The notes beneath the pieces were generated by a model that saw only the letters and a list, made by a program, of their open reading frames with translations, was not told where the DNA came from and ran no database searches. From a virus (Duplodnaviria; Caudoviricetes): DNA of 59,708 bases. Positions 1 to 16,104 of the stretch are shown piece after piece (position 1 is the first letter of the stretch; each line of letters starts with the position of its first letter). The translations under genes and the position numbers were made by a program. The DNA lies in the IMG/VR virus record IMGVR_UViG_3300014656_000031, positions 1 to 59,708 of that record; one strand, written 5' to 3'.

Positions 1-12
1 CCAATTTTCTTA

Positions 13-41
13 TTGACATTATACATAGTATTTCATATAAT
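13..41 (+). promoter_or_regulatory. sigma70-type early promoter
   Basis: TTGACA (13-18), 17-bp spacer, TATAAT (36-41); perfect consensus upstream of ORF 63. Confidence 0.85.
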
Positions 42-62
42 AATAAAAATGAAAGGATACCT

Positions 63-1654: not shown

Positions 1655-1908
1655 AATATATAGTTATAGAATTTGACAATAATCCAAAGCGTAGAAATTT
1701 TTATAAGTATGATAATGAGCAAAATGTTTGTATTATTTTTGAAATGACAGGAGTAAAAGATAGCCGAAAACGTATTGGATCTAAACATCACTGGGATTAT
1801 ACTCGACAAATCAAATACTGGTCAGACCCAGCAGGTCCATGGAAGATAATTGGTATTTATAACACATTTGAAGAATTTATAGAAACACATTTTGTAGATC
1901 TATTATAA
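1651..1908 (+). CDS. FVDLL-tail family small protein
   Basis: MKYIV...YNTFEEFIETHFVDLL*. Confidence 0.8.
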   Translation: MKYIVIEFDNNPKRRNFYKYDNEQNVCIIFEMTGVKDSRKRIGSKHHWDYTRQIKYWSDPAGPWKIIGIYNTFEEFIETHFVDLL

Positions 1909-1909
1909 T

Positions 1910-1985
1910 GCCGTGATAGCACAATTGGTACTGCACGTCTTTCGTAAAGACAAGATTGTCGATTCGAATTCGGCTCACGGCTCCA
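1910..1985 (+). tRNA. tRNA-Thr(CGT)
   Basis: acceptor GCCGTGA/TCACGGC, loop TT-CGT-AA, TTCGAAT T-loop, encoded CCA. Confidence 0.9.
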
Positions 1986-1987
1986 AT

Positions 1988-2061
1988 ACGGGATTAACAT
2001 AATGGAAGTGTGACAGGCCTACACCCTGTTAGTGGGGGTTCAATTCCCTCATCCCGTACCA
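1988..2061 (+). tRNA. tRNA-Val(TAC)
   Basis: acceptor ACGGGAT/ATCCCGT, stem ACAGG/CCTGT, loop CC-TAC-AC, CCA. Confidence 0.85.
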
Positions 2062-2075
2062 TTTTAGTTTTCAAT

Positions 2076-2150
2076 GCCTCTATAATGTAATGTATAGCAT
2101 AATACGCTTCGAACGTATTAGTGTGGGTTAGATTCCTACTAGAGGCACCA
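2076..2150 (+). tRNA. tRNA-Arg(TCG)
   Basis: acceptor GCCTCTA/TAGAGGC, loop CT-TCG-AA, CCA. Confidence 0.88.
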
Positions 2151-2156
2151 TTTTAT

Positions 2157-2229
2157 GTGTTATTGGTGTTCAACGGCAGCACGTCAGGTTTCCACCCTGA
2201 AGGTAGGGATTCAATTTCCCTATAACACT
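2157..2229 (+). tRNA. tRNA-Gly(TCC), no encoded CCA
   Basis: acceptor GTGTTAT/ATAACAC, stem TCAGG/CCTGA, loop TT-TCC-AC. Confidence 0.85.
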
Positions 2230-2238
2230 CTGTTTAAT

Positions 2239-2313
2239 GTGTCTATGGTGATAATAGTAACACGTCTGATTGCCTATCAGAAGATTCCGGGGCAGTTTCG
2301 GATAGACACTCCA
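2239..2313 (+). tRNA. tRNA-Gly(GCC)
   Basis: acceptor GTGTCTA/TAGACAC, loop TT-GCC-TA, atypical T-loop GGCAGTT, CCA. Confidence 0.82.
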
Positions 2314-2320
2314 TTCTATT

Positions 2321-2397
2321 GCCTCCATCGTCTAACGGCTTAGGATATCTGGTTCTCAACCAGAAGATTGCCAGTTCAAACCTGACTGGAGGCACCA
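2321..2397 (+). tRNA. tRNA-Glu(CTC)
   Basis: acceptor GCCTCCA/TGGAGGC, loop TT-CTC-AA, CCA. Confidence 0.88.
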
Positions 2398-2406
2398 TTT
2401 ATTTTA

Positions 2407-2435
2407 TTGCCTTATTAATTAGTTTCCTATATAAT
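2407..2435 (+). promoter_or_regulatory. sigma70-type early promoter
   Basis: TTGCCT-17 bp-TATAAT. Confidence 0.75.
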
Positions 2436-2462
2436 TTTAAAAAATGAAGGATAATAAAAATT

Positions 2463-2734
2463 ATGCCAAATTCTTTAAATAAACCAATTAATTTCAATGA
2501 TATATTTAGTGAAATGTTTGGTGGGGACAATTCTAAATCAAAAGACAATCCAAAGGAAACTATTATTATTGTAAAAGCAAAGAAATTGATGATTATCTTC
2601 GTTCTAAATATCGTGATAAATTAGTAGTTGGTGTATTAGAACCTGATGGTAGTATTCGTGTTATCAAAAACGATATTTCTGAAACTATGACAACTGATGA
2701 ATTTAAAGAAAAGTACTTTGTGGACCTATTATGA
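2463..2734 (+). pseudogene. FVDLL-tail family gene split by a -1 frameshift
   Basis: frame 0 stops at 2624 (53 aa); -1 frame open 2537-2734 reads EIDDYLRSKY...TTDEFKEKYFVDLL*; join near GTA AAA GCA AAG (2571-2582). Confidence 0.75.
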
Positions 2735-2985
2735 ATTATGCAGTTTTTATAAACAATCACAACATGTGTATTGAAATATGGGCTAAAGATGGTCCAAATG
2801 CATGTAAATTGATTGGTCATAATTATTCCTCAAAGATGTACTGGGACTCTAAAAAACAATCACTGGAAGATTGGGTTGATCATATTGAAAAAAATTTTCC
2901 AGGTCGGGATAAAAATGGATTTAAATGTACACGTTATAATACTTTAGAGGAAGTGATGGAACAACACTTTGTGGACCTGTTATAA
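2731..2985 (+). CDS. FVDLL-tail family small protein
   Basis: MNYAVF...YNTLEEVMEQHFVDLL*. Confidence 0.8.
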   Translation: MNYAVFINNHNMCIEIWAKDGPNACKLIGHNYSSKMYWDSKKQSLEDWVDHIEKNFPGRDKNGFKCTRYNTLEEVMEQHFVDLL

Positions 2986-3432
2986 GTTTCTTATAATCCA
3001 TATTTTATATGTTCTTCCAACTGGAATATCATGTAGTCTAGTGTGAATATAGGTTACCTCAACATTATGTTCCTTGAAAAAATTATAAATGTTCCAAGCT
3101 TGCTTCTTTAAGTGATCTTTACTGAATACTTCAATATCACCACTATTATCTCTTTTATCAATACCTAATCTTACAGCGCCATTCTTGAGTGCTAAAGTGT
3201 GTAGCATAAAATTTGGTGAATCTTTTTCACTTTCAGATAATCCGAACTGATCTAAATGATCTCTGATATATTGATCGTGCTTTGCATATTGAACAGGAAT
3301 AATTTGTCCAAACGGAAGCAACCAATAAACAATTTGAGGGGCTGCTCGATATATAGCCTGTTTATACAGATCATTGAATTTGTTAGATATTTCTTCAATA
3401 ATCAATTTGAATAATTTAGTAAAAGAATCCAT
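2980..3432 (-). CDS. hypothetical, putative internal head protein (W-x-x-P-x-G...H...G-x-x-R family)
   Basis: ATAAATA late motif just upstream; N-term MDSFTKLFKLIIEE; paralogous to 4421 and 16363 ORFs. Confidence 0.7.
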   Translation of the reverse strand: MDSFTKLFKLIIEEISNKFNDLYKQAIYRAAPQIVYWLLPFGQIIPVQYAKHDQYIRDHLDQFGLSESEKDSPNFMLHTLALKNGAVRLGIDKRDNSGDIEVFSKDHLKKQAWNIYNFFKEHNVEVTYIHTRLHDIPVGRTYKIWIIRNL

Positions 3433-3484
3433 ATTAATATTTATGCTTTTATGCCGCAGGTTTCGGTAAACACAGGAGTTTAAA

Positions 3485-3560
3485 CGCTAGGAAGTCAAAC
3501 GGCTGAGACTGCTCCCTCATAAGGAGAAAACAGCAAGTTCAATTCTTGCCCTAGCGACCA
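3485..3560 (+). tRNA. tRNA-Met(CAT), elongator or Ile2 type
   Basis: acceptor CGCTAGG/CCTAGCG fully paired, loop CT-CAT-AA, CCA. Confidence 0.85.
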
Positions 3561-3565
3561 ATTTT

Positions 3566-3640
3566 GTCTCTGTAGTGAAATGGATATCACAATAGGCTAC
3601 GAACCTGTAATTCCAGATTCGAATTCTGGCAGAGACGCCA
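3566..3640 (+). tRNA. tRNA-Arg(ACG)
   Basis: acceptor GTCTCTG/CAGAGAC, loop CT-ACG-AA, CCA. Confidence 0.9.
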
Positions 3641-3643
3641 TTT

Positions 3644-3698
3644 AGCCACTCCAACATCTTGACCCGTATGTTGGGGAAGAGGCTTAAATAAACGGGTC
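3644..3698 (+). ncRNA. candidate H-type pseudoknot RNA between tRNAs
   Basis: stem CTCCAACAT/ATGTTGGGG; loop GACCCGT (3661-3667) complementary to ACGGGTC (3692-3698). Confidence 0.55.
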
Positions 3699-3703
3699 CT
3701 TTT

Positions 3704-3778
3704 GCTCTTATGATGTAATGGATAGCATAAAAGTTTCCTGAACTTTTTGTACAGGTTCAAATCCTGTTTGGAGCACCA
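3704..3778 (+). tRNA. tRNA-Arg(CCT)
   Basis: stem AAAGT/ACTTT, loop TT-CCT-GA, GGTTCAAATCC T-arm, CCA. Confidence 0.85.
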
Positions 3779-3781
3779 ATC

Positions 3782-3855
3782 GCCCGTTTCGTTTAAAAGT
3801 AGGACGAGTCCTTGGTGAGGATTAAATTTGGGAGCGTTACCCAAAACGGGCTCCA
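3782..3855 (+). tRNA. tRNA-Thr(GGT)
   Basis: acceptor GCCCGTT/AACGGGC, loop TT-GGT-GA, atypical T-loop AGCGTTA, CCA. Confidence 0.8.
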
Positions 3856-3903
3856 TTTTAGATAAATATTTTAAAAGATATCATTTTAGATAAATATTTA
3901 AAA
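3855..3903 (+). repeat. tandem duplication of a late-promoter motif
   Basis: two near-identical copies of TTTTAGATAAATATTT(T)AAAA. Confidence 0.6.
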
Positions 3904-4094
3904 TGACATCTTTTAAAGAATATTTTGAAACACCAAACGATTTATGGATTGATTCAATACCAGAAGAACCCTATGATCCGTGTCCTTGTGGTTGTGGAAT
4001 GAAATGGAGATTCGTAGTTAAAGGTGGGGAAAAAGTTATTGCAGATCATGAAAAAAGATTTATTGAAAAAATGAAGGAACAATCACATGAATAA
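3903..4094 (+). CDS. small protein with SEC-C-like motif
   Basis: DPCPCGCGMKW; N-term MTSFKEYFE. Confidence 0.7.
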   Translation: MTSFKEYFETPNDLWIDSIPEEPYDPCPCGCGMKWRFVVKGGEKVIADHEKRFIEKMKEQSHE

Positions 4095-4434
4095 AGATGA
4101 CAAACTAATATTCGAATCATATTTTAATAAAAACAATGGTATTCCTGTGCACGTGGAATTAAACAAAATTTTACAAATTTTACAAAATTCAAAAACTGAA
4201 AGAGAAGCTAATGAATCAATGTTAACTGTGATACACGATGGCAAGCTTAGCGAAGATGCATTTTTAGAATATTTAGAAATAACACAAGTGACTGCTTATG
4301 ATGCCATGAAGGAGGCACTTACAGAAGAAGAAGAACCTAGTTTAGAAAATGAACCAGAGAAAATGTCTACTGTGGATAAAGAAATAGACCAATTATCTAT
4401 ACGTTCGTTTGAGAAAAATAATGCCAACATTTAA
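4087..4434 (+). CDS. acidic hypothetical, putative internal head protein
   Basis: N-term DDKLIFESY shared with 7528, 51917 and 52809 ORFs. Confidence 0.7.
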   Translation: MNKDDKLIFESYFNKNNGIPVHVELNKILQILQNSKTEREANESMLTVIHDGKLSEDAFLEYLEITQVTAYDAMKEALTEEEEPSLENEPEKMSTVDKEIDQLSIRSFEKNNANI

Positions 4435-4825
4435 GGACTATTTTAAAATGCATTTTGGCAAAATTGACAGAGCAGGATATTTTTGGATTATGCCAAACGG
4501 CGAAGTTATTGATGTGTCAGCTTCTACACATATGAATTATGCTAGGGCACACCCAGAAAAATTTAGAGTTCCAGCAAGCTATTTTGACGGAACAGAACCT
4601 CAACTTACAGCATTATTAAAATCTGGAGCTATTCGAGTAGGTACTCTTGATTATAAACTGTCTGCAGATGTTTCTTATTATACTTTCACTGATTTAAAAA
4701 GACAAGCTAGAAAAATATACGAACTTTTTTCCCATACTAAATTTGAAAAAATTCATTTACATAGATTTGAAGAACCTGTCAAAAATCTTGAAATTTCACT
4801 TGACAGGATTAAAGAATTATATTAA
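4421..4825 (+). CDS. hypothetical, W-x-x-P-x-G...H...G-x-x-R family
   Basis: MPTFKDYFK start; FWIMPNGEVI..H..LLKSGAIRVG. Confidence 0.7.
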   Translation: MPTFKDYFKMHFGKIDRAGYFWIMPNGEVIDVSASTHMNYARAHPEKFRVPASYFDGTEPQLTALLKSGAIRVGTLDYKLSADVSYYTFTDLKRQARKIYELFSHTKFEKIHLHRFEEPVKNLEISLDRIKELY

Positions 4826-4838
4826 TATATATAAAGAT

Positions 4839-4913
4839 AGCGGGGTACACTGGAGAGTCCAGGGATGGTCTCATAAGCCATCGACGCTGATTGCAAAACA
4901 GCTCCCGCCACCA
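4839..4913 (+). tRNA. atypical initiator-like tRNA-Met(CAT)
   Basis: A1:C72 mismatch, GCGGGG/TCCCGC acceptor, loop CT-CAT-AA, degenerate T-arm, CCA. Confidence 0.75.
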
Positions 4914-4939
4914 ATTTCAAAAGGATATTAAACAACTAT

Positions 4940-5017
4940 TGGCGCATAGAGTAATGGTAGCTCCCCAGACTTTGAATCTGGATGGTTGTGTTGGTTCAAC
5001 TCCAACTGCGCCAACCA
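4940..5017 (+). tRNA. tRNA-Gln(TTG)
   Basis: acceptor TGGCGCA/TGCGCCA, loop CT-TTG-AA, CCA. Confidence 0.88.
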
Positions 5018-5035
5018 TTTCCTTTTAATTTTAAT

Positions 5036-5124
5036 GCCAACGTCGGTTAGTGGCTATACCAGCAGATTTGTAATCTGCCATGTCGAAAGACATACCGGGA
5101 GTTCAAGTCTCTCCGTTGGCTCCA
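5036..5124 (+). tRNA. tRNA-Thr(TGT) with long variable arm
   Basis: acceptor GCCAACG/CGTTGGC + T73, loop TT-TGT-AA, V-arm ATGTC-GAAA-GACAT, CCA. Confidence 0.8.
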
Positions 5125-5136
5125 TTTAGTTTCTTC

Positions 5137-5165
5137 TTGACTTTCTCAAAGGTTTCATATATAAT
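5137..5165 (+). promoter_or_regulatory. sigma70-type early promoter
   Basis: TTGACT-17 bp-TATAAT. Confidence 0.8.
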
Positions 5166-5209
5166 TTAATTATAATAATTAAAAGCCATTACATGTTTGT
5201 AGGTTTACT

Positions 5210-5569
5210 ATGAAAATCTGTGTTTTATCACAAGAGCAACTTAAAACTTTTATTGAGATAAGAGATGATCATAAATATGGAAAATCATTTGAATATACAC
5301 ATTTTGCAGGACCTTTTCCACCAATAAACAACACTCCTTCTTGTTCTACTACACCAGAAAATATAAAAATGATGGAATTATATTATAAAGTTAAAAATGC
5401 AGATTTGGTTGTTGTTGATTGGGATGGAAAGAATTTTAGAGTTTTTAAAGATTGGGGTATATGTACAGTAGTAGAAGATACACGAGGACGGGTTCCGAAT
5501 GTGTGGAACCATGGAGATTTGATTAAAAAAGAAGAACTAGTAGAACAATATTTTGAAGAATTTTTATGA
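5210..5569 (+). CDS. FVDLL-tail family protein (variant)
   Basis: ends KKEELVEQYFEEFL*. Confidence 0.75.
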   Translation: MKICVLSQEQLKTFIEIRDDHKYGKSFEYTHFAGPFPPINNTPSCSTTPENIKMMELYYKVKNADLVVVDWDGKNFRVFKDWGICTVVEDTRGRVPNVWNHGDLIKKEELVEQYFEEFL

Positions 5570-6102
5570 AAAAAACTAAAGATATAACTAAGTACAACAT
5601 TAAATGGCAAATTTTACGGGCTAAAATTAAAGGCCCTGGTTATTCACTAAATGAGAAACTAACTGCTGTAGAAAAATATTTCAGAGAAGAACAGACCATA
5701 GATGCTTATGAAAGAGTATTAAACTTCTTAGAAGGTCTACAAAAAGGATATATAGGCAAAAATCCAAAGGCAGCAGAAATCGTAGAAAGCGAAATCAGTG
5801 AATGGCGACATTTTGATTCCACTAGAATGAAAAAAGAATCATCTATAATTCCTACCACAGATGAAATATTAGAATATTCATTTGGTGAAAGATTTCTTCT
5901 TTGGAAAGACTTATTTAAACGCAATCAAAAATGGTTAGAAAAAGGATATAACCAAAAAGAATTAAACAATTTCATGGATTTGTTATATAAAGCCTTTCAA
6001 GATAACAAAGAAGACGTGGGAGAAAATTATTCCTACAAAAAATTACAACAACTTCGAAAAAGTGCAGAATCTATAGAAAATACACATAAATTTTTCTTTT
6101 AA
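5566..6102 (+). CDS. hypothetical protein
   Basis: 178-aa ORF, ATGA-coupled. Confidence 0.75.
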   Translation: MKKTKDITKYNIKWQILRAKIKGPGYSLNEKLTAVEKYFREEQTIDAYERVLNFLEGLQKGYIGKNPKAAEIVESEISEWRHFDSTRMKKESSIIPTTDEILEYSFGERFLLWKDLFKRNQKWLEKGYNQKELNNFMDLLYKAFQDNKEDVGENYSYKKLQQLRKSAESIENTHKFFF

Positions 6103-6109
6103 TTAATCA

Positions 6110-6138
6110 TTGCCTTATAATAAATTTTATGGTAATAT
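6110..6138 (+). promoter_or_regulatory. sigma70-type promoter for the ncRNA
   Basis: TTGCCT-17 bp-TAATAT with TG extension. Confidence 0.6.
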
Positions 6139-6174
6139 ATTAAAAGATAAGTAAACGTTCTTTAAAAATAAAAT

Positions 6175-6460
6175 AACAGTGACTGAATAAGAGGTAGCCA
6201 GCCTCTAAGGTGTTAGCGACGATGAAGAATCTAGCTAGCTAGTAGGCCTGTGAAGCGTAAACCTGAAAAAGCGAGAGTTGGTCAACTCTTAGCTTCGTAA
6301 GAACGGGACAAATCGTAATATAAATCATTATGATGGCTGTATCCTGTTGAAGGTAAACAATCCTTCCATTCGTTAAGCGTTTGTCTGATCAACAACGTGA
6401 ATGTGGGTGAATGAACGTGTACAGAACTGAATTTATGGGTAGTCATGAATCCCATCTATT
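6175..6460 (+). ncRNA. large structured ncRNA candidate (ROOL/GOLLD-like context, class unassigned)
   Basis: ORF-free, GC-richer than flanks, at least six hairpins, long-range GTGACT/AGTCAT pairing, own promoter and terminator, within a tRNA cluster. Confidence 0.7.
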
Positions 6461-6468
6461 ATTTTTTT

Positions 6469-6502
6469 ACCCAGGATAATTAAACTTTATCCTGGGTTTT
6501 TT
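6469..6502 (+). terminator. rho-independent terminator
   Basis: ACCCAGGATAA/TTATCCTGGGT stem followed by T-run. Confidence 0.85.
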
Positions 6503-6509
6503 GTTTAAT

Positions 6510-6593
6510 GCCCTCGTAGCCGACCCGAGCTTCTAACTCGCGGAACCGTAATTGGAGCTGAAATTGCAGGTTCGAATCCTGCTGAGGGCGCCA
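6510..6593 (+). tRNA. rearranged tRNA-Arg(TCT)-like gene lacking a normal D-arm
   Basis: acceptor GCCCTCG/TGAGGGC+GCCA, perfect T-arm GCAGG-TTCGAAT-CCTGC, loop CT-TCT-AA, only 8 nt between acceptor and anticodon stem. Confidence 0.7.
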
Positions 6594-6602
6594 TTGTTTT
6601 CC

Positions 6603-6630
6603 TTGTCTTCTCCCTTGGTTCATATATAAT
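6603..6630 (+). promoter_or_regulatory. sigma70-type early promoter
   Basis: TTGTCT-16 bp-TATAAT, ATG at 6637. Confidence 0.6.
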
Positions 6631-6636
6631 TATAAT

Positions 6637-7281
6637 ATGAAAAACTTAAAATTCTATGTACAGCAACATTCGACAAGAATATCTCCTGGAAATTATCAAC
6701 TAGGTACAAAAATTCAAATACCCTATAGAGACTTTTGTGGGTATATTAAAACCTCTGCAAAATTAATGGGGTCTGATTGGATAAAACAAATTACGCAAAC
6801 TGAATTGCAAATACAACAAGTTATTAAGCGATGGTGTAATGCTTATGTTTCTACAGAAATTAAAGGGCAGCATATTCCTGTGATTGATTGGGATGGGGCA
6901 TTACACGATAAAAACCTCCCAGTATTAAAACATTTAGATGAAAATAATATTGGATATGTAATTTTTCACAGTACAACTGATTTAAGATACTGGATATTTA
7001 TTGACCAATTAGGAACTCATACACAATGCATTAAACTTATGGGCGATTGCCGAAATAAATACTCTGCTGGAGATCCATCCTATATCCATTATCAATCTCA
7101 AACTAAAAATATCGTAGTTAGAGCCTACCCCAAATTTATGGATATCCCTTCTCTTTTCATGTCCAGCGATCCCACAAAATACACCAAAAATTTCAAATTA
7201 TGGATAGACAGTTTTAATCAGTATTGGAAAGAACCACATATTCAAGAAGTAGTAGATCATTTCTTTGTGGAAAGCTTATGA
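6637..7281 (+). CDS. hypothetical, possible primase-polymerase-like fold, with FVDLL-type tail
   Basis: PVIDWD (DxD) and YVIFHST motifs; ends QEVVDHFFVESL*. Confidence 0.6.
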   Translation: MKNLKFYVQQHSTRISPGNYQLGTKIQIPYRDFCGYIKTSAKLMGSDWIKQITQTELQIQQVIKRWCNAYVSTEIKGQHIPVIDWDGALHDKNLPVLKHLDENNIGYVIFHSTTDLRYWIFIDQLGTHTQCIKLMGDCRNKYSAGDPSYIHYQSQTKNIVVRAYPKFMDIPSLFMSSDPTKYTKNFKLWIDSFNQYWKEPHIQEVVDHFFVESL

Positions 7282-7505
7282 AATTTCTCTTTATGCAATT
7301 TAAACATGCGCCAGAGATTGTTTATATAGCTAAAGCAGATACTCTAGACAGTCCTGCTACATATATACATTGTCCTGCCGGTATGGATAATTATCGTAAT
7401 ATAACAATTAAAAGTGAAATGCGCATAGACTCTTCATCATGGATCTATAAACTATATGACTCTTTAGAAGAATTAATGGAAGCTCATCTAGTCGATCTTT
7501 TATAA
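7278..7505 (+). CDS. FVDLL-tail family small protein
   Basis: MKFLF...YDSLEELMEAHLVDLL*. Confidence 0.8.
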   Translation: MKFLFMQFKHAPEIVYIAKADTLDSPATYIHCPAGMDNYRNITIKSEMRIDSSSWIYKLYDSLEELMEAHLVDLL

Positions 7506-7527
7506 CATAAAATGATAAATATTTAAT

Positions 7528-9111
7528 ATGAATACAGAAACTAAGCTGATTTATGAAGCGTATCAAACTATTTATGAATCTTGGTGGGACGATGTAGAAC
7601 AAGAAGGTCCTGAAAAAGATGTAAAAGCAGATGCAGAAAAAATAATTGCTTCAGAAAACGAAGAAGAAATATCAGCTATTGCACAAAAAGCTGCACATGA
7701 AATTCCTCCAGAACAGACAGAAGAAACTGCGGATAAAGAATGGGAAATCTCTGCCAGGTTTATGCCGTACTTGCAAGAAAAAATAAACAAGCTAAACAGA
7801 AAATCAGCAAAATTAGGCACTCCTCCAATTACTCTTACTAAAACCGGTGAGGAAATTCGTAAAATTACAAGTGAAGTAAATGGTGAAGAATTACTAGTAC
7901 AAATCATTAAAATTAAACTGCAAGGATCTGCTCCAGTATTGGACGGTTGGCAATTTGTGGCAACTATTGAACATATACCAGGCGGCAATATGATTTATAA
8001 AGTTCCTGGTTTAGATCTAAAAACTCCACTTACTACAATTTTTAAAAATCAACCACCTACTTGTGATTGGTGTAAAATTAATAGAAGCCGTTTAGAAACC
8101 TTTCTAATTCGCAAATTGGTTAATGGTGTTCCTGTAGAAGGAAAATGTGTAGGGCGAACATGTCTAAAGGATTTCTTGGGTGGCAATGATCCACAAAAGT
8201 ATTTAGCCTATGCAAAAAGTTTAACAGACATTATTGGAATGCTAGCTGAATTTGAAGCGGCTGGAGCAGAAAGCCCTCATCCCCGAGCTGCACATGCAGA
8301 TCAATATGTTGAGGCTTTTGGATTTCTATGTAGAGTAGCAACAAACATTCGTAATTTTGGTTGGATAAGTGCAGCTAAGGCTCGTGAGCAAGGAAGATCT
8401 TCTACAACTTCTGATGCCCTGATAGATATTAGCAATGCACAAAAAGGCAATCAACCTAAAAAATCAATTGAACAAGAAGACAAAGAACTAGCCCAAAAAA
8501 CTATAGATTGGGCTCAGAATGGTCTTCCTAAAAAAATTGAAGAAATTACAAATAAAATTGCTGCAGGAACTGCTTCTTCCTTCGAACAACAAAGCGTAGA
8601 TTATTTAAACAATTTACACACAGCATTACAATCAAATTATTTAACTTGGAAGCAAGCACGAATTGCAGGGTCTGCTATTATAGCATATAAAAAAGAAACA
8701 GAATGGAAAGATAAACAAAAAGAACAAGCATCTAAATCCAATGAATGGGTGGGACAATTAGGTGGTAAAATTAGTAAATTACACGTAACCCTAAAAGGGA
8801 AAAACACTTTTCAAACTGATTATGGTATGTCTACTTTGGTGAGATTTGAAGATGACGTAGGAAATAAGCTAGCCTGGTTTGCTACAAATACAGATTCCTT
8901 AGGAGATTGGGATATCGGTACCTCCATGAATATTGATGGTACCGTTAAAGCCCATCAATTCTATCCACGAGGATCACAGAATAAACAAACTCTTCTAACA
9001 CGTGTTAAAAATTCTGATTTCATTAAGCCTCGAAAGGCACGACAACCAAAATTTGTTGTTCCTCCTGTTCCACCGAAAACAACAGGGCTAGATGCTTCTC
9101 CAGGATGGTAA
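7528..9111 (+). CDS. conserved phage protein, Zn-binding centre and probable C-terminal OB-fold
   Basis: CDWC...CVGRTCLKDFLG; C-term WVG...RFEDDVGNKLAWF...GTVKAH...QTLLTRVK; N-term KLIYEAY. Confidence 0.7.
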   Translation: MNTETKLIYEAYQTIYESWWDDVEQEGPEKDVKADAEKIIASENEEEISAIAQKAAHEIPPEQTEETADKEWEISARFMPYLQEKINKLNRKSAKLGTPPITLTKTGEEIRKITSEVNGEELLVQIIKIKLQGSAPVLDGWQFVATIEHIPGGNMIYKVPGLDLKTPLTTIFKNQPPTCDWCKINRSRLETFLIRKLVNGVPVEGKCVGRTCLKDFLGGNDPQKYLAYAKSLTDIIGMLAEFEAAGAESPHPRAAHADQYVEAFGFLCRVATNIRNFGWISAAKAREQGRSSTTSDALIDISNAQKGNQPKKSIEQEDKELAQKTIDWAQNGLPKKIEEITNKIAAGTASSFEQQSVDYLNNLHTALQSNYLTWKQARIAGSAIIAYKKETEWKDKQKEQASKSNEWVGQLGGKISKLHVTLKGKNTFQTDYGMSTLVRFEDDVGNKLAWFATNTDSLGDWDIGTSMNIDGTVKAHQFYPRGSQNKQTLLTRVKNSDFIKPRKARQPKFVVPPVPPKTTGLDASPGW

Positions 9112-9112
9112 T

Positions 9113-9580
9113 ATGAAATTTAAATCTATATTTTTAGAAGCTTTAGATTCGATTGAAATTAAAGCAATCCCATCTAAAAACAGACCATCTGATGTAGATA
9201 TTATTGGTGCATATCAAAATAATGAATTAATTGGAAAAGCCTCTATTAATAAAACAACAGATCCATACCATTTTTTGCTATCTTATATTCACGTAAATCC
9301 TGAATTTAGAAATCAAGGAATAGCAAAAAAACTAGTAGAATATATACAGTCTAAATATACATCTAGACCAATTATACTTCAACCAGAATCTTTTGGATTT
9401 AAATTCAAAGGAAAAACAAACGAAGAACTTCGAGCTATGTATTCACATTTAGGTTTTAAAACTTTAGTCAATCAACCAAATTATATGATTTGGAGACCTA
9501 CAGTAAGTGAATCGGCTATTCAACAATCTCCAGCTTTACCATCAGCACAAACTCATATGTTAGCACCACCAAAAATTTAA
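9113..9580 (+). CDS. GNAT family acetyltransferase
   Basis: IHVNPEFRNQGIAKKLV acetyl-CoA motif, YSHLGF. Confidence 0.85.
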   Translation: MKFKSIFLEALDSIEIKAIPSKNRPSDVDIIGAYQNNELIGKASINKTTDPYHFLLSYIHVNPEFRNQGIAKKLVEYIQSKYTSRPIILQPESFGFKFKGKTNEELRAMYSHLGFKTLVNQPNYMIWRPTVSESAIQQSPALPSAQTHMLAPPKI

Positions 9581-9651
9581 ATAATTTTCTTGATTTTTTC
9601 TATATTTATAATATAATTAACTTAGTGGGGATGGCATACAACAGCAACTTC

Positions 9652-10587
9652 ATGAAATTTCTAACATATGCATTGTTAATATTATTAACTGTTCAGTCAC
9701 CTGCAAATATATTAACTCTTGAATTAGAAAACGATATATTCTTCGATAGTGATAAATTTTATACGCATGGAACTAAGATTTGTTATTACTTCACCTATCT
9801 GCAAACTTTTGATAAATACTTTGAATTTCTTTTCAAAAAAGATAGAGCCCATAACATTGGATTAACTATTGGGCAGAATATGTATACTCCTTCAGATATC
9901 AGCATATCTACTCCTATTACGGACGACAGACCTTATGCTGGCTGGCTCTATGGTGGAATTATATTTAAATCTATTGGATCTAATGATACTAGTTTTATTG
10001 AAATAGATGTTGGTACAACTGGCCCAGATTCCTATGCAGAAGAAGTTCAAAAACAAGTACATGAGTGGACAGGCAGTACAACTCCAATGGGTTGGAGTAA
10101 TCAGATTAAAAATGTAGTTGGCATAAATGTAATCTTTAAAGAAAAATGGAAACTGTGGGATGCATATTATAAGGACCTTGGTGTACAATTTAATCCATTT
10201 GTAAATGCTTCTCTAGGAAATATTTGTACATATTTTGGAGGAGGTGTAGAACTTCGAACAGGATATAAATTACCTCCAGACCTGTTTATAGTTTCTCCTA
10301 TAGAACCCACTGTTATTGAAATTAATCCTAAAGAATGGTTCTTCTTTTTATTTGCATCAATTGGAGGCAAATATGTTGCTCGAAATATTTTATTAGATGC
10401 AGAATTATGTCCTATTCCATATTATTTAGAAAAAGAAGATTGGATAGGCGAATTCAAATATGGAGCCGCAACAGGATTAAAATACATTCGAATTGAACTA
10501 GCTAACATTATTCGTACTAAAGAATTCACCATTCAAAATCAGGATTATATAGAATATACTTCCTTGGCGGCATCAATTGTTTTTTAG
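9652..10587 (+). CDS. lpxR: LpxR-family (DUF2219) lipid A deacylase, outer-membrane beta-barrel
   Basis: signal peptide, ENDIFFDSDKFYTHG, GQNMYTP, DRPYAGWLY, C-terminal Phe. Confidence 0.8.
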   Translation: MKFLTYALLILLTVQSPANILTLELENDIFFDSDKFYTHGTKICYYFTYLQTFDKYFEFLFKKDRAHNIGLTIGQNMYTPSDISISTPITDDRPYAGWLYGGIIFKSIGSNDTSFIEIDVGTTGPDSYAEEVQKQVHEWTGSTTPMGWSNQIKNVVGINVIFKEKWKLWDAYYKDLGVQFNPFVNASLGNICTYFGGGVELRTGYKLPPDLFIVSPIEPTVIEINPKEWFFFLFASIGGKYVARNILLDAELCPIPYYLEKEDWIGEFKYGAATGLKYIRIELANIIRTKEFTIQNQDYIEYTSLAASIVF

Positions 10588-10595
10588 GAGAAACT

Positions 10596-10784
10596 ATGGC
10601 AAACTATATTGAAATCAAAGCAGAATATTGGTCTGATCGAACTAAAAATAAAGATAAGCCTATTGCATTAACATTTAAGGAAGGTGGAAGAAATTCTTTT
10701 AGTGATGTCAAATGGTTATCTGTTAACGAATGTAAAAAACTAAAAGAATCCTTGCAGAAAATATTGGATGATATAAAATTATAA
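10596..10784 (+). CDS. hypothetical protein
   Basis: AGGAG RBS, 62 aa. Confidence 0.7.
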   Translation: MANYIEIKAEYWSDRTKNKDKPIALTFKEGGRNSFSDVKWLSVNECKKLKESLQKILDDIKL

Positions 10785-10849
10785 TATAAAAGAAATGAAA
10801 TTTCGATTACAAAATTATCCGGAACTATTAAAAAAAGAAAGACATTAAA

Positions 10850-11056
10850 ATGAAACTTGTATGTCCAAATAATCCTAAACATAAAAGGTTTAGTACTTAT
10901 GCTGCTATATCACGAGAATGGATAGTAGATGAAGATGGGAAATTTATTAGAGAAGGAAAAAATAGCGATATAATAAACTATCCGGATGAACACGATTGTT
11001 TTTGGTGTGTAGAATGTGCTACAGAAGCAGATAAAATAAAGGCAGATGAAAAATGA
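10850..11056 (+). CDS. small zinc-ribbon protein
   Basis: CP...H and WCVECA motifs. Confidence 0.65.
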   Translation: MKLVCPNNPKHKRFSTYAAISREWIVDEDGKFIREGKNSDIINYPDEHDCFWCVECATEADKIKADEK

Positions 11057-11598
11057 TTACAACAAAACAAAATGGTAATAAGTTAACAGTTACAATTGAA
11101 CATCAATGTGATTCTTGTGAAGGAACAGGACTATATCAAGGTATGGCTGAAAGAAACGGAGCTGGTGTAGTCTGTTCTACTTGTAAGGGAACAGGTAAAT
11201 TTGTTTCTGTTGAAACTTTTACGAAATTTGAAGGTCGTAAAAACAAAAAAGGTGTTGAACGAGTTTATCAAACAGCAGGGGGCTATGGAATCACATCTAA
11301 AGATTTTACAGATAAAAATGGCAAACTTTTTAAATTTTCAGAAGCAGGATGCTCCTATAAAGATTGGAAGAATGATGTAATTCCAAAACCTATAGAAGAT
11401 CTGCATTGTCCGTATATGCATAGTAATCAAAACATGCAAAACTCTAAACACAAAGCCTATAAGATGTATAAAACTGTATGTAGAAATGGGTTACATTGGG
11501 GCTTGATTACCGAATGTAAGAATTTTAAATGTAAAGAGAAGTGTTGGAAGAAATACTATGAATTAGTTGGTGATAATTATAATGAAATCAAAGCCTAA
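11053..11598 (+). CDS. DnaJ-type zinc-finger protein
   Basis: CDSCEGTG and CSTCKGTG repeats. Confidence 0.75.
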   Translation: MITTKQNGNKLTVTIEHQCDSCEGTGLYQGMAERNGAGVVCSTCKGTGKFVSVETFTKFEGRKNKKGVERVYQTAGGYGITSKDFTDKNGKLFKFSEAGCSYKDWKNDVIPKPIEDLHCPYMHSNQNMQNSKHKAYKMYKTVCRNGLHWGLITECKNFKCKEKCWKKYYELVGDNYNEIKA

Positions 11599-11731
11599 TA
11601 AGTGTTACATTAAAAAATGTAAATGGGCTCCTTCTATAGTTTATTTAAATAGAGAACTATGTGACTATCATTGGGAAATGTTATGTAAATTAGATACTGC
11701 TGACATGAAAAGAAAATTGAACTTAAAATGA
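11582..11731 (+). CDS. 49-aa Cys/His protein (below ORF-track cutoff)
   Basis: MKSKPNKCYIKKC...LCDYHW...; fills gap, ATGA-coupled to HNH gene. Confidence 0.6.
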   Translation: MKSKPNKCYIKKCKWAPSIVYLNRELCDYHWEMLCKLDTADMKRKLNLK

Positions 11732-12330
11732 ATGTAAAGAAGCCAGATGTACTTGTACTTAATCGTGTTTTTGTACCTATACACATTGTAGACCATCAAA
11801 CTGCAATGACTCTAATTTATACTGAAAAATGCCGACCTTTAGATAGAGATTATTTGGCATATACATTTAATGATTGGTTAAATTTTTCTTCTCAAGAAAC
11901 TAATAATTATCCAAAATTACACACTATAAATTATCCTATTGCTATACCAGAAATTATAGTATCTACTACCTTTGATAAACTCCCACAGAGGCAAGTAAAA
12001 TATTCTAGAACCAATGTAATGGCCCGAGACAAATATCGTTGCGGTTATTGTGGTAAACAGTTTAATAGAAAGGATCTTACTATTGATCATATTCATCCAA
12101 GATGCAAAGGTGGTAAGACTACATGGGATAATGTAATCTCTTGTTGTTTCCCTTGCAATCAAAAGAAAGACAACAAAACTATGGCAGAAGCTGGAATGAA
12201 GCTAAGATTTTTACCTAAAGCACCAAAATGGATGTCTCCATTAACTCATATAAGTATGAAGGAACATCCTTGTAAAAGTTGGTCTCATTTTATGTATAAG
12301 GTCTCTACGGAAATAGAGAATGAAGACTAA
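11728..12330 (+). CDS. HNH endonuclease (McrA-like)
   Basis: RDKYRCGYCG...LTIDHIHPRCKGGKTTWDNVISCCFPCNQKK. Confidence 0.9.
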   Translation: MNVKKPDVLVLNRVFVPIHIVDHQTAMTLIYTEKCRPLDRDYLAYTFNDWLNFSSQETNNYPKLHTINYPIAIPEIIVSTTFDKLPQRQVKYSRTNVMARDKYRCGYCGKQFNRKDLTIDHIHPRCKGGKTTWDNVISCCFPCNQKKDNKTMAEAGMKLRFLPKAPKWMSPLTHISMKEHPCKSWSHFMYKVSTEIENED

Positions 12331-12585
12331 AGAATATTGGTTAGCAGAACGCAACTTGTCACGCGGATCATTAACACCAATACTTGGTGATTTTTGGTAT
12401 CTTTTAGTTAATAAACGTAATGGTGTATGGTATACTTTAATAAACACAAATGACTATACGCTCGATTCTATTAAAAATATTTTGGTAAATCAAATATTAC
12501 AGATATTGAAGGCCCATGGTGTTTCACTGATAGTTATAAAATAAGGCAATTACAAGACGGTGAAGAGTTTATTTACATGTTATGA
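12320..12585 (+). pseudogene. FIYML-tail paralog split by a -1 frameshift
   Basis: frame 0 stops at 12544; -1 frame open from 12475 reads KYFGKSN...QDGEEFIYML* and ends in ATGA overlap with its paralog; A5 run at 12473-12477. Confidence 0.75.
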
Positions 12586-12836
12586 AAAATAAAGAATACT
12601 GGTTATGTGGAAGTACTGATGAAAAGGATTTTTGGTTTCTTGTAACAGACCTTGAGCCTTGTGTTGATAATAAATATCCTAAAGGATTTCTTGAAGGAAA
12701 ATTGATTAATGGGGGTCCACATGAAATGGCGAGAGCATGGCGCCCCAATAATTCCAACTTTATATGGAACCCTAAGGCCCCAGGTTATTATCTAAAAAAG
12801 GTTCCTCCAGATGAAGTTTTTATTTATATGTTGTAG
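12582..12836 (+). CDS. small protein, FIYML-tail variant
   Basis: MKNKEYWL..DFWFLV..PDEVFIYML*; paralog of 12320 gene. Confidence 0.75.
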   Translation: MKNKEYWLCGSTDEKDFWFLVTDLEPCVDNKYPKGFLEGKLINGGPHEMARAWRPNNSNFIWNPKAPGYYLKKVPPDEVFIYML

Positions 12837-13272
12837 TTTATTGATGTTATGTGGATGTGTTAATAGTGCAAAACGCAACTATCTTGGTACATACTCTATA
12901 GCAAATGATACTATTAATTTGTATCTCGTTCATCAACAAGAACTTAGCAAAACTAATATAGCCTGCGCAATCCACACAATCAGGGATAGTTTATTACTAT
13001 GTGAGAGTAAAGAGCGATTTTTTATGCATAAGGCATACATCGACACATTAAAATCATTAGAACTCAATTCTAATGAGAAATACATAGTGAATTACTTCTA
13101 TACTCAATACCTTAATTTTATATATTTTGATATAAAAGTCCCTATGCAACATATATCTCAGGCACTATTTAATGGAACTGAATTGGTGCTAGATTGGTTC
13201 GATGACACTTATCGGTTTTTTTCATATAAAGAAACTTTTAATATGAATACGGGCCTATCTGAGTTACGTTAA
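12811..13272 (+). CDS. putative lipoprotein
   Basis: MKFLFICCSLLMLCGC lipobox-like signal. Confidence 0.6.
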   Translation: MKFLFICCSLLMLCGCVNSAKRNYLGTYSIANDTINLYLVHQQELSKTNIACAIHTIRDSLLLCESKERFFMHKAYIDTLKSLELNSNEKYIVNYFYTQYLNFIYFDIKVPMQHISQALFNGTELVLDWFDDTYRFFSYKETFNMNTGLSELR

Positions 13273-13816
13273 ACCATAAAATATAATGAAATCCGTTTTT
13301 ATCTTCTACGTTCAATATTTTATATTTTTCTCTTGTTTTTCTATCTGTCCACAGAGCTTCATTTTGCACAAAATAATCTCCATCTAACTTTCCATATAGA
13401 GACTCTAAAATATGAGCTATTTCGTCCTGTCTTCTTAGAATTACATAAGCATTATGGTGATCATATCCTTTTGATAATTGTATAGGCTTTGGTTTAGAAT
13501 CTTTTTCTTTTTGGCGAGCTCTTATAGCTTCTTTATGTTTCCACGGCTTTTTTCGTGCATTTTGTATTTTATCTAATACCGTCTCTTCATCTTTGGCTAA
13601 TATAGAAGGTTCTAATACAGAAATATCAGCTTCTTCACTATAAACTTCTTCGCTTGGAGGTGAATCTGGTATATCAGGAGCTAACACAACATCAGCCAAC
13701 TGTCTAACATTTTTAGCTATCCTACGATTTTCTAAATATCTGTTTTTATTCTTTCTAGAATATCGAAGTTTAGACTTCTTCTTTTTAGGTGCAGGATCTA
13801 TATTTTCTGTTGTCAT
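13238..13816 (-). CDS. basic hypothetical protein
   Basis: likely start MTTENIDPAPKKKK behind palindromic late motif. Confidence 0.7.
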   Translation of the reverse strand: MTTENIDPAPKKKKSKLRYSRKNKNRYLENRRIAKNVRQLADVVLAPDIPDSPPSEEVYSEEADISVLEPSILAKDEETVLDKIQNARKKPWKHKEAIRARQKEKDSKPKPIQLSKGYDHHNAYVILRRQDEIAHILESLYGKLDGDYFVQNEALWTDRKTREKYKILNVEDKNGFHYILWFNVTQIGPYSY

Positions 13817-13818
13817 AT

Positions 13819-13832
13819 CATAAATATTTATG
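13819..13832. promoter_or_regulatory. palindromic T4-like late promoter between divergent genes
   Basis: CATAAATATTTATG perfect palindrome; motif recurs at 17161, 27716, 51875, 55370 and others. Confidence 0.65.
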
Positions 13833-13850
13833 TTACTATAGAATATTGCA

Positions 13851-14158
13851 ATGAACAAATTTAAACACTTTTTTAAAGAAGCGTCTGTCCAATATGAAGA
13901 TTGGACTAGTGCTATAGAAGGCAATTCTATGCTTAGGACTGGGCGGGATTTGCTTATAGAATTTGATAGAATCTGGCCTGGTAAAGAATCTCTGATTGTT
14001 GGTGGTACAATTAGAGACTTGTTATTGGTAAAATTCTTAGTGACACAGAACAATGGATTGTAGATAATTCTAAATTTAATGCCACGGAAGAAGAAATTAA
14101 AAAGTTTGCCAATATGAAATATAAAGAATCTTTAAAAAAACCTGGCCAAATAAATTGA
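13851..14158 (+). pseudogene. CCA-adding enzyme / poly(A) polymerase family gene with large internal deletion
   Basis: N-terminal LIVGGTIRDLLL motif joined out of frame to IGKILSDTEQWIVDN...EEEIKKF C-terminal-like segment. Confidence 0.7.
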
Positions 14159-14177
14159 TTTCATATATAATTATAAT

Positions 14178-14408
14178 ATGAAATTTAAAAAATATGTTTT
14201 AGTCAGTTTAGATAATGGCACCACAGGATTTATTGTTCATGATATAGAACCAATAAACATAAATATAGATGGTATAGAGTTACAAATATATCAACCATTT
14301 TTAGGATATACAGAATCAAAGCTTACATGTTTTATAAGAGACAATATTATAGATTCAGCAAATACAGTTCAAGAACTAGTAGAACGATATTTTGAAATGT
14401 TTTTATGA
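14178..14408 (+). CDS. FVDLL-tail family protein (variant)
   Basis: ends NTVQELVERYFEMFL*; TATAAT at 14166-14171. Confidence 0.75.
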   Translation: MKFKKYVLVSLDNGTTGFIVHDIEPININIDGIELQIYQPFLGYTESKLTCFIRDNIIDSANTVQELVERYFEMFL

Positions 14409-14658
14409 TTAAATTTAATATACATGATATCGTATGTCTTAATAATTATAGTATGTACCATGAAGATGAATTTAAAACTACATTTTTAAGATTGTTGAGA
14501 TTTCAGAATATGAGTATAAATGTTTTATAGATGTTGTTCCTTTAAACAAAAATCCATTACATATAGATAAATATTGTTTTTATGATTATGAATTAAGGAA
14601 AATTAGTGAGAAAGAATTGGACATTTATGGTTCTGAATTGTTTGTGGATTTACTTTAA
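14405..14658 (+). pseudogene. FVDLL-tail family gene split by a -1 frameshift
   Basis: frame 0 stops at 14530; -1 frame open from 14476 reads NYIFKIVEI...YGSELFVDLL*; A4 (14474-14477) and T5 (14483-14487) runs. Confidence 0.75.
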
Positions 14659-14918
14659 TGTATCAATTATTCAAAACCTTTGATAAATTTGAACACAGAT
14701 GTACATATAGCATCTGCAATGATTATTTTATAAAATTTGAATGGGCTGAAAAACAAGGAAAAGTAGTATCTGCTTGTGAAATACCATTTGAGTGTCGAAT
14801 ACACTTAAATGAAAGTCCCTATGAAACAACTAATCTAATGTGTGAATTATCCTCTACAGAAGAAGTGTGGTATTATATAGGGGAAAATTTTCCCGAGCTG
14901 TTTACGTTTTTACTGTAG
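14658..14918 (+). CDS. FVDLL-tail family protein (variant)
   Basis: ends STEEVWYYIGENFPELFTFLL*. Confidence 0.7.
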   Translation: MYQLFKTFDKFEHRCTYSICNDYFIKFEWAEKQGKVVSACEIPFECRIHLNESPYETTNLMCELSSTEEVWYYIGENFPELFTFLL

Positions 14919-15195
14919 TTTCAGAAACATTAAACCCGTTACCTACGAAAAAGTTTTTAATAATCCCTGTAACTATAGACTGATCTGTTTCTGGCACATT
15001 TTTAAATTCAATGTAGATATCTTCTTCGCCTAAAAATGCGTAGTTAGTAAAATAATCATTCTTAGTTAAAACATAATTACTGTTTAAAAATGTTAAAAAA
15101 TGTTTAAATAAATCATACTCTAATATTTTTGAATAAGTTAATTCAGGTGCTTCAAAACCAATACTATCCTGTTCATATGATAAAACTATTTTCAT
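14902..15195 (-). CDS. hypothetical protein
   Basis: 97-aa ORF, ATGA-coupled. Confidence 0.7.
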   Translation of the reverse strand: MKIVLSYEQDSIGFEAPELTYSKILEYDLFKHFLTFLNSNYVLTKNDYFTNYAFLGEEDIYIEFKNVPETDQSIVTGIIKNFFVGNGFNVSETTVKT

Positions 15196-15455
15196 AATAA
15201 TATTTCAAAACTTTCATTTTTGAGTTGTTGTTCTGTTAACCGTTGCACAATATTATCTTCTTTAATAAACATTTCCTGATCATATTTTTTATAATTAGTT
15301 TGAGGAGAGGTCATTGATCTACTCCAATAAGGCCCCACCAATACTAATTTTTTATTCTTTACTAAAGATTCTTCCGCCCCTGAATATGATTCTTTTACCT
15401 TCCCAATAATTTGTTGATTATTAATTTCTGCTATAATATAATTATCTTGTTGCAT
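15192..15455 (-). CDS. small protein, possible FVDLL-tail variant
   Basis: likely start MQQDNY; ends EQQLKNESFEILL*. Confidence 0.65.
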   Translation of the reverse strand: MQQDNYIIAEINNQQIIGKVKESYSGAEESLVKNKKLVLVGPYWSRSMTSPQTNYKKYDQEMFIKEDNIVQRLTEQQLKNESFEILL

Positions 15456-16104
15456 GATAATACTCAGTTTGGATTTTGTCATACGTTACTCCATGATCAC
15501 TAAGATATTGAACATTATCAATGATCATAGAATCTGCACCACAAATATAATATTTAATTTTTGAATCATTAGTAGGAAGTTCAGAAAACCATTCAGTAAT
15601 CTTTTTAGGAAATCGAGTTTCCTCTTGTGAAACTGCAAATTTACAATTGTAATCGGTTTTTAATCTCCATCCTTCAATACAATCTGCTTGAGTCTTGCCG
15701 CCATGAAGTATCATTAAAGGATTATGTGAATAATATCCTAATGCAGATAAAAACGGAGATATTCCTGCACCAGTGGCAATATATACGTATTTTTGATCTT
15801 CACAATCCTTGCCTGGTGTAAAATCTCCATGCGGCTCAGATAATTCAATTTCATTTCCAATTACAACATTTGATAGAGCTTTTGAAACACCACCCTTTTC
15901 ATTTTCGAATATTTTAATATAAAATTCCAAGTGTTTATTATTCCTGGGTGAGGATGCTATATTATATACACCACTACTAGAAGAATTATCAGGATGTGTA
16001 ATAGTTATACACTGCCCTGGTATATATTCTACACCATTTCTATTACAGGCAATATAAAAAACTGTAGGGGATGCAAATCCGCAAAATGCTACTCTATGTT
16101 TCAT
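15442..16104 (-). CDS. ferredoxin-NADP reductase-like FAD/NAD(P) oxidoreductase
   Basis: YIPGQ, YNIASSP, GGVS, IATGAGISPF, YYICG motifs. Confidence 0.88.
   Translation of the reverse strand: MKHRVAFCGFASPTVFYIACNRNGVEYIPGQCITITHPDNSSSSGVYNIASSPRNNKHLEFYIKIFENEKGGVSKALSNVVIGNEIELSEPHGDFTPGKDCEDQKYVYIATGAGISPFLSALGYYSHNPLMILHGGKTQADCIEGWRLKTDYNCKFAVSQEETRFPKKITEWFSELPTNDSKIKYYICGADSMIIDNVQYLSDHGVTYDKIQTEYYHATR

Follow-up and report, generated by a model that had tools for sequence, protein, structure and literature searches.

Three members of a family of small phage genes, hereafter genes 1–3, each carry a frame break that severs the conserved C-terminal tail from the product, and they are probably young pseudogenes: recent one-base deletions would have inactivated redundant accessory genes and become fixed in the phage population sampled. 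The genes lie in the window, the 59,708-base stretch of DNA analysed here, which is the whole of one IMG/VR virus record (IMGVR_UViG_3300014656_000031), about 25% complete by CheckV, and is a fragment of a large, uncultured T4-like phage from groundwater. We favour inactivation or decay because the breaks are real, are confined to the family and come without recoding signals. An earlier, sequence-only reading of this DNA had offered selective inactivation or neutral decay among its explanations; inactivation or decay stands, helped further by a break without a slippery motif in a distant relative, and the loss may be neutral or selected.

The three frame breaks

Genes 1–3 share one layout (Table 1). 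A zero frame runs from a start codon to an early stop, and a start-less frame in the −1 register overlaps its end and carries the family tail up to the start codon of the next gene. The TGA that closes the −1 frame of gene 1 (2732–2734) overlaps the ATG at 2731, that of gene 2 (TGA, 12583–12585) the ATG at 12582, and that of gene 3 (TAA, 14656–14658) the ATG at 14658. Before its last third, no tail frame contains an ATG, GTG or TTG. The shift is confined to 2537–2624 in gene 1, where the likeliest spot is the A-rich stretch 2571–2582 (GTA AAA GCA AAG); to 12475–12544 in gene 2, where it is the A5/T4 runs at 12473–12484; and to 14476–14530 in gene 3, where the A4 run at 14474–14477 or the T5 run at 14483–14487 is the best candidate. 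The longest runs at the sites are the A5 of gene 2, at 12473–12477, and the T5 of gene 3. The breaks are thus confirmed as present, and the sequence-only reading had described them correctly: the start-less −1 frames, their FVDLL or FIYML ends, the overlaps with the next start codon and the candidate sites at 2571–2582, 12473–12477, 14474–14477 and 14483–14487 are all as it gave them.

Several lines of evidence tie the stranded tails to the family beyond chance, with different strength for each gene. FVDLL ends 5 of the 1,548 stop-to-stop frames of at least 20 amino acids, all in the family and two of them the tails of genes 1 and 3, and FIYML ends two frames, the tail of gene 2 and its neighbour at 12582–12836. 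Taken alone, a shared pentapeptide is weak evidence, because three unrelated pairs of frames also share one by chance. A 12-residue tail motif occurs nine times across all six reading frames, each time directly before a stop, and the tail of gene 1 is included. We also built a 28-residue tail profile from 20 intact members (12 from the window and 8 from a relative), leaving out the broken genes, and searched it with hmmsearch: the gene 1 tail is the best match outside the training set (E = 3.5e-4), the gene 3 tail scores weakly (E = 1.1) despite its exact FVDLL end, and the 32 matches listed do not include the gene 2 tail. The link for gene 2 lies at the other end of the protein, as its first 31 or so residues match the neighbour at 12582–12836 (BLASTP, E = 1e-4); its tail yields no BLASTP alignment, and the likeness there is confined to the last five residues. 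The N-terminal open reading frame (ORF) of gene 3 resembles family N-termini by eye only, and that of gene 1 has no family-like N-terminus, which leaves the tail frame as the sole basis for its membership.

A family of small genes with a predicted C-terminal helix

The family comprises 15 small genes between 883 and 15482, whose products end in E-x-x-F-V-D-L-L or in near variants (FVNLL, FAELL, FEEFL, FEMFL, FIYML, FTFLL, FEILL, LVDLL and FVESL). Ten of the 15 genes end in TTATGA or CTATGA, in which the stop overlaps the next ATG, and the tail is conserved at the protein level, as synonymous codons differ between tails. The proteins span 75–119 amino acids, with similar N-termini (MKY followed by hydrophobic residues) and middles that cannot be aligned. 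Two AlphaFold2 models, with a mean predicted local distance difference test score (pLDDT) of 62 and 66, both begin with a beta-hairpin, continue through a middle predicted with little confidence into a strand, and close with a C-terminal helix in which the tail lies, at residues 68–79 in the first and 73–84 in the second; 10-residue blocks in that part reach a mean pLDDT of 78–90. By these models the tail is predicted to be a structural part of the protein, the C-terminal helix that follows a conserved strand, and the truncated products would lose it.

The family is uncharacterised; the window has about 15 copies of it, and a 236-kb relative has about 10. Pfam and PHROGs return nothing below an E value of 0.01 for ten family proteins or for the six pieces of the broken genes. 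The ESM Atlas gives no usable feature match for the family, and its structural neighbours all fall under the naming threshold; a Foldseek search with a family model, whose mean pLDDT is only 66, finds no match at E ≤0.001 among viral models and the PDB. A family profile finds five matches among 5.8 billion clustered proteins, all of them the window phage's own, and a full HMMER search of 1.84 billion representative proteins finds nine, again all the phage's own.

Table 1 Genes of the tail family, with the separated frames of the three broken genes
Feature	Coordinates	Strand	Details
Four intact tandem family genes	883–1125, 1122–1355, 1352–1654, 1651–1908	+	Stop/next-start overlaps
Gene 1, zero frame	2463–2624	+	53 codons; AAGGA 11 nucleotides 5′ of ATG; stop TAG 2622–2624
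Gene 1, start-less −1 frame	2537–2734	+	Family core and tail; ends ...DEFKEKYFVDLL / ...KLVVGVLEPDGSIRVIKNDISETMTTDEFKEKYFVDLL*
Intact family gene directly 3′ of gene 1	2731–2985	+	
Intact family gene	5210–5569	+	119 amino acids; tail EQYFEEFL
214-residue protein	6637–7281	+	Family-like tail FFVESL
Intact family gene after the 214-residue protein	7278–7505	+	
Gene 2, zero frame	12320–12544	+	74 codons; stop 12542–12544
Gene 2, start-less −1 frame	12475–12585	+	36 codons; ends EEFIYML*
Intact paralogue directly 3′ of gene 2	12582–12836	+	Tail EVFIYML
Intact family gene directly 5′ of gene 3	14178–14408	+	
Gene 3, zero frame	14405–14530	+	41 codons; stop 14528–14530; ATG overlaps stop of gene 14178–14408
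Gene 3, start-less −1 frame	14476–14658	+	60 codons; ends SELFVDLL*
Intact family gene directly 3′ of gene 3	14658–14918	+	
Intact family gene on the opposite strand	15192–15482	−	Tail ESFEILL
Family loci of the 236-kb relative G001 (L017–L028), examples	89646–89909, 127843–128151, 139728–140248, 179048–179652, 185597–186180		

The breaks are real and confined to the family

We compared the window with contigs of four public groundwater metagenome runs, which contain DNA near-identical to it, over positions 2400–14950; such a comparison is one of consensus sequences, which hide minority alleles. In a possible source run, one contig spans the whole interval without a gap at a depth of 12. A second run, from another sample and another study, has contigs over 2400–6251, 12070–13301 and 13327–14950 with no differences and no gaps, at depths of 6.3–7.6; the two studies share year and habitat and may be one campaign. 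No insertion or deletion is listed at the three break sites in the contigs of these two runs. The other two runs contribute small shares only, and none of their listed pieces covers the three sites. The runs listed with DNA of this phage include no RNA run. The truncated 74-residue gene 2 ORF is also recorded for two contigs, of 59,708 and 107,511 bases, and a run contig of greater length exists as well. This record and the agreement of the second sample's contigs at all three sites show that the breaks are real and do not stem from assembly; on this point, too, the sequence-only reading is borne out, with identical alleles at three of three sites. Outside the three genes, contigs of both well-covering runs read A at position 8522, where the window has G, which is the sole difference in 12.5 kb.

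Within the window, breaks affect 3 of the 15 family genes and none of the 55 others (Fisher p = 0.008). In none of those 55 does a start-less open stretch point to a break, and five unbroken genes with 25–38 open codons upstream are explained by overlap with a neighbour or by a later true start. The sequence-only reading had named similar indels, equally common in non-family accessory genes, as a finding that would count against it, and there are none among the 55. If three hits were spread uniformly over the sequence length, the family would receive all of them with a probability of 0.029 within the 1–16 kb block and 4.4e-4 over all coding sequence. A scan of codon usage for start-less coding frames did not discriminate, because the shadows of minus-strand genes scored as well as true frames.

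Breaks in a distant relative

The HNH-type gene that adjoins gene 2 has relatives at 53–56% identity, with other small genes beside it, and a metagenome scan with this gene returned only relatives at ≤56% identity. One of them, G001, is a complete 236-kb genome with terminal repeats, which rests on a single assembly and which we scanned in full. It holds at least eight intact frames with the family tail (for example, ...YNSLEQLVERHLVTLL and ...FDTFKRFMEQNFVRFL), in addition to a mini member of 34 amino acids. A clear break lies at 184221–184699 on the minus strand, where the ORF 184337–184699 stops and a start-less −1 frame of 41 codons continues to ...FTSRWFEYLL. The sequence over which the shift must occur is ACT AAA ACC CTA TAA, with an A4 run, and permits no cognate re-pairing by any tRNA; the loss of one A from an A5 run accounts for it. 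A second break, at about 103.75–103.96 kb on the same strand, is probable: an upstream ORF has the C-terminal half in its −1 frame, close to a G5 run, and the case is less sure because the C-terminal piece has its own ATG.

Breaks in this relative therefore number one or two among about 10 family genes, against one among about 356 others (p = 0.054 or 0.002); they are not exclusive to the family but are far more frequent in it. A non-family candidate at about 166990–167110 (minus strand) joins an ORF of 126 amino acids to a frame of 364 codons, the first 75 of them start-less. This candidate, at about 167.05 kb, runs in the +1 direction and sits at an A8 run, and could stem from misassembly or transcriptional slippage as well as from a real break.

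Probable young pseudogenes of a redundant family

In the reading that we prefer, each gene would have lost one base, most likely an A or a T of a short run, at 2571–2582, 12473–12484 and 14474–14487, respectively, and the deletion would have become fixed in the sampled phage population. Translation from the normal start would then end 106, 37 and 127 nucleotides before the old stop in genes 1, 2 and 3, and the product would lose the last beta-strand and the C-terminal helix with the tail. The broken genes would thus be loss-of-function alleles and recent pseudogenes of a redundant family whose members turn over rapidly, and with about a dozen paralogues left their loss would be tolerated. The downstream frames would still be open because the lesions are recent and because broken phage genes tend to be deleted before they gather further lesions. 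Of this, we infer how the base was lost, that function went with it and that the lesions are recent; the breaks, their presence in the DNA, their confinement to the family and the lack of recoding signals are observed.

The pattern resembles ordinary frameshift pseudogenes in paralogous families, in that one indel at a short homopolymer disables the gene, intact paralogues adjoin it and recoding signals are absent. It differs from them in its setting: pseudogenes are considered rare in phages, and here about a fifth of a family is broken, with the same pattern in a distant relative. The setting itself recalls the hyperplastic regions of T4-type phages, in which small ORFan genes are shuffled, gained and lost (PMC2839356, PMC4122927). 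Like those regions, the block has small, fast-evolving genes and tRNA genes in a T4-like, myovirus-type genome (phrog_219; TATAAATA-like words before genes), and relatives carry different small genes beside the conserved HNH-type gene (53–56% identity). The small-gene block is thus variable in content between relatives and stands beside conserved genes, as a hyperplastic region does. A difference is that the small genes here are paralogues of one family, which share a conserved C-terminal helix and have stop and start codons overlapping at their junctions. For T4-type phages, promoter-stem-loop cassettes (PeSLs) that flank the shuffled genes have also been described; what is observed here on that score is an identical 20-nucleotide leader before the genes at 6637 and 14178.

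Several observations weigh against decay. No orthologue was found for any of the three genes, so that neither relaxed constraint nor conservation of the sites is measurable: searches of viral contigs with the gene 1 tail and a search with the gene 3 tail gave none, the N-terminal part of gene 2 retrieved only its own truncated ORF, and a gapped DNA pattern that allowed 4–7 bases at the gene 2 run matched nothing in viral contigs. All five breaks, three here and one or two in the relative, shift towards −1, no broken gene has more than one lesion, and the downstream frames are open for 36, 60 and 65 codons, up to the stop/start overlap. The shift regions are also rich in Z_ZZN tetramers, with 6, 4 and 3 in genes 1, 2 and 3 (13 in total, where 6.6 would be expected in about 68 codons). 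In gene 1, A_AAG stands at 2552–2555 and 2579–2582 and A_AAA at 2540–2543 and 2573–2576; its two A_AAG compare with 0.14 expected in 28 codons from intact genes. To these points is added the blindness of the contig consensus to minority alleles. A bias towards one-base deletions at short runs, together with the quick loss of dead phage genes, would explain the −1 direction, the single lesions and the open frames.

Selected silencing and recoding as possible alternatives

The first alternative starts from that same regularity. The family may be an arms-race family of early accessory proteins whose single-base −1 lesions are recurrent, selected silencing, for example to escape a host defence that senses its members, possibly with residual −1 decoding. 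It is suggested by the count: two phages together have 5 broken copies among about 25, each with one −1 lesion and an intact downstream part; those phages share only about 56% identity in the neighbouring conserved gene. We regard this as unlikely.

Less likely still is that ribosomes slip into the −1 frame where the two frames overlap, at a low rate or in a programmed way, to give a short tail-less product and some full-length, tailed protein. In its favour, every break is to −1, and no tail frame is interrupted before the stop/start overlap. The tetramers listed above are about twice as dense in the shift regions as in intact genes, and gene 1 has A_AAG and A_AAA among them. In a systematic E. 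coli study, A_AAG, U_UUY, C_CCY and A_AAA are the efficient −1 tetramers, with A_AAG the best of them, reaching up to 5.6% with a pseudoknot, whereas U_UUA and U_UUG reach only 1.8–3.6 times background (PMC4066793). In the same study, the shift rate of Z_ZZN tetramers that have no pseudoknot is 0.147%, with a background of 0.112%, and tetramers alone thus stand at background level (PMC4066793). These are E. coli rules, applied here to an uncultured phage. Genes 2 and 3 fare poorly under them: apart from one A_AAA two codons before the stop, the shift region of gene 2 has A_AAT and T_TTG, and that of gene 3 only T_TTA and A_AAT.

The other signals of recoding are missing. None of the three shift regions contains an X_XXY_YYZ heptamer, for which about 0.5 would be expected in their 68 or so codons, given 144 heptamers (5 of them A_AAA_AAG) in 18,721 codons of intact genes. 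Six folds, of the shift regions and of the parts downstream, show no structure beyond that of shuffled sequence, with z-scores of −1.13, +0.80, +0.60, +0.76, +1.15 and +0.97, and 29–178 of 200 shuffles fold at least as well as each. There is no shared motif either: the longest word common to the three regions has 5 nucleotides, a length also reached by 1,747 of 2,000 random triples. The only word near a site that resembles a Shine–Dalgarno sequence is AAGGA at 2553–2557, 15–21 nucleotides upstream. The clear break in the 236-kb relative, finally, has no usable slip site. Programmed −1 frameshifting, which the sequence-only reading had proposed, is therefore not supported, efficient tetramers being found chiefly in gene 1; its caveat that the runs are short (at most 5 bases) and that no perfect X XXY YYZ heptamer is present holds.

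Set beside the programmed −1 sites of bacteria, insertion sequences and phages, which have X_XXZ_ZZN heptamers or else Z_ZZN tetramers together with a stimulator (PMC4066793, PMC5009743), the breaks are alike in that the C-terminal part lies in a −1 frame overlapping the end of the zero frame and in that gene 1 contains A_AAG and A_AAA. They are unlike them in having no heptamer, downstream structure, well-spaced Shine–Dalgarno-like stimulator, conserved site or shared motif, and two of the three shift regions are without an efficient-class motif in a useful place. Two further decoding routes were ruled out: a frameshift-suppressor tRNA, as all 10 tRNAs have ordinary 7-base anticodon loops, and stop-codon reassignment, as the tails lie in another frame and not behind an in-frame stop.

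Other explanations of the breaks

On a par with recoding, and just as improbable to us, is that at least gene 1 has no frameshift, 2463–2624 being an unrelated small gene and the tail frame a mini member of hairpin and helix whose start codon was lost, or that the truncated products have a function of their own. The upstream ORF of gene 1 has its own Shine–Dalgarno-like AAGGA and, as noted, no family-like N-terminus, and the intact 34-residue mini member of the relative (139728–139862, MNAWVIELEGGSIIVFDDKMNFDEYFESHFEEFL) aligns by eye with the gene 1 tail frame. When joined, however, gene 1 has a length of about 90 residues, typical of the family, and its tail frame is open for 30 codons upstream of the hairpin. 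The N-terminal ORFs of genes 2 and 3, moreover, look like family N-termini, measurably so for gene 2.

The short A/T runs could also be slipped-strand switches that turn family members ON and OFF in the population, as at contingency loci, a proposal of the sequence-only reading that we find highly improbable. The indels probably fell in homopolymer runs, and only members of a variable multigene family are broken, which is how phase-variable contingency genes look. Known phase-variable tracts are longer than 4–5 bases, however, and those here are A4–A5 and T4–T5 runs without length variation between the contigs of two samples. The same OFF allele is seen in two samples from two studies at all three loci (6/6, in contigs, which hide minority alleles), and intact genes carry many runs of equal or greater length, including in-frame A7 and T7 heptamers, unbroken. 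Switching of this kind is thus not supported.

Weakest of all, and hardly credible, is that the breaks are sequencing or assembly errors at homopolymers in genes that the real phage has intact: a short homopolymer is at or beside each of the three sites, each site needs one more base and the run records give no library type, but against this stand the base-for-base agreement of the second sample (depth about 6–8) and of the possible source run (depth 12), the gene 2 ORF recorded on two contigs, the improbability (4.4e-4) that uniform errors over all coding bases would fall three times out of three in the family, and about 43 kb of equally AT-rich large genes without a break, an argument that the sequence-only reading had made for about 30 kb of structural ORFs and that holds.

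Implications

If decay is the right reading, the window offers a natural snapshot of birth-and-death turnover in a phage accessory family, with about a fifth of the copies caught just after inactivation, and bears on gene shedding in giant phages. Annotation would then mark such ORFs as disrupted and not as programmed frameshifts. If the breaks are instead selected or decoded, the members of the family would be candidate defence triggers or counter-defence proteins that a simple genetic change can switch off.

The window and its other features

The window has a G+C content of about 0.28–0.37 along its full length and divides into a left 16 kb of small genes and 10 tRNA genes and a right-hand 43 kb of large genes, mostly on the minus strand, one of which matches the baseplate wedge family phrog_219 (E = 3.6e-35). 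Megablast of positions 1–15000 against 50,697 GenBank phage records gave no match. Our gene map has 70 ORFs and few coding gaps without explanation, namely the three broken-gene tails, the tRNA regions, a structured-RNA region at 6103–6636 and one divergent intergenic region. Among the larger products, a 1,127-residue protein (20546–23926, minus strand) matches the phage protease family phrog_3677 over residues 446–627 (E = 8e-54), and a 527-residue protein (7528–9108, plus strand) matches phrog_2319, a family of unknown function (E = 9e-60).

The gene-free region 6103–6636 contains a weak match to the manA RNA motif at 6158–6465 (26.4 bits against a gathering score of 55.2, E = 8.7e-5), a terminator-like hairpin at about 6464–6503 and a tRNA-like element at 6510–6590 that scores 28.6 bits against a threshold of 29 and is not called by ARAGORN. 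The CCA end is encoded in 9 of the 10 tRNA genes. The tRNA at 5036–5124 has 89 bases and a long variable arm, the shape of Ser, Leu or Tyr tRNAs, yet a TGT (Thr) anticodon.

Two kinds of short word recur before genes. A ATAAATATTTA-like word, which we take to resemble the T4 late promoter TATAAATA, stands directly 5′ of many starts: 3903, 7528, 17215 and 56463 on the plus strand, and 2980, 16363, 18171, 23926, 33411 and 54516 on the minus strand. An identical 20-nucleotide leader, TCATATATAATTATAATATG, is found at 6617–6639 and 14158–14180, before genes 6637 and 14178, each the first in a run of family genes, and similar words precede the minus-strand genes at 19456 and 16101.

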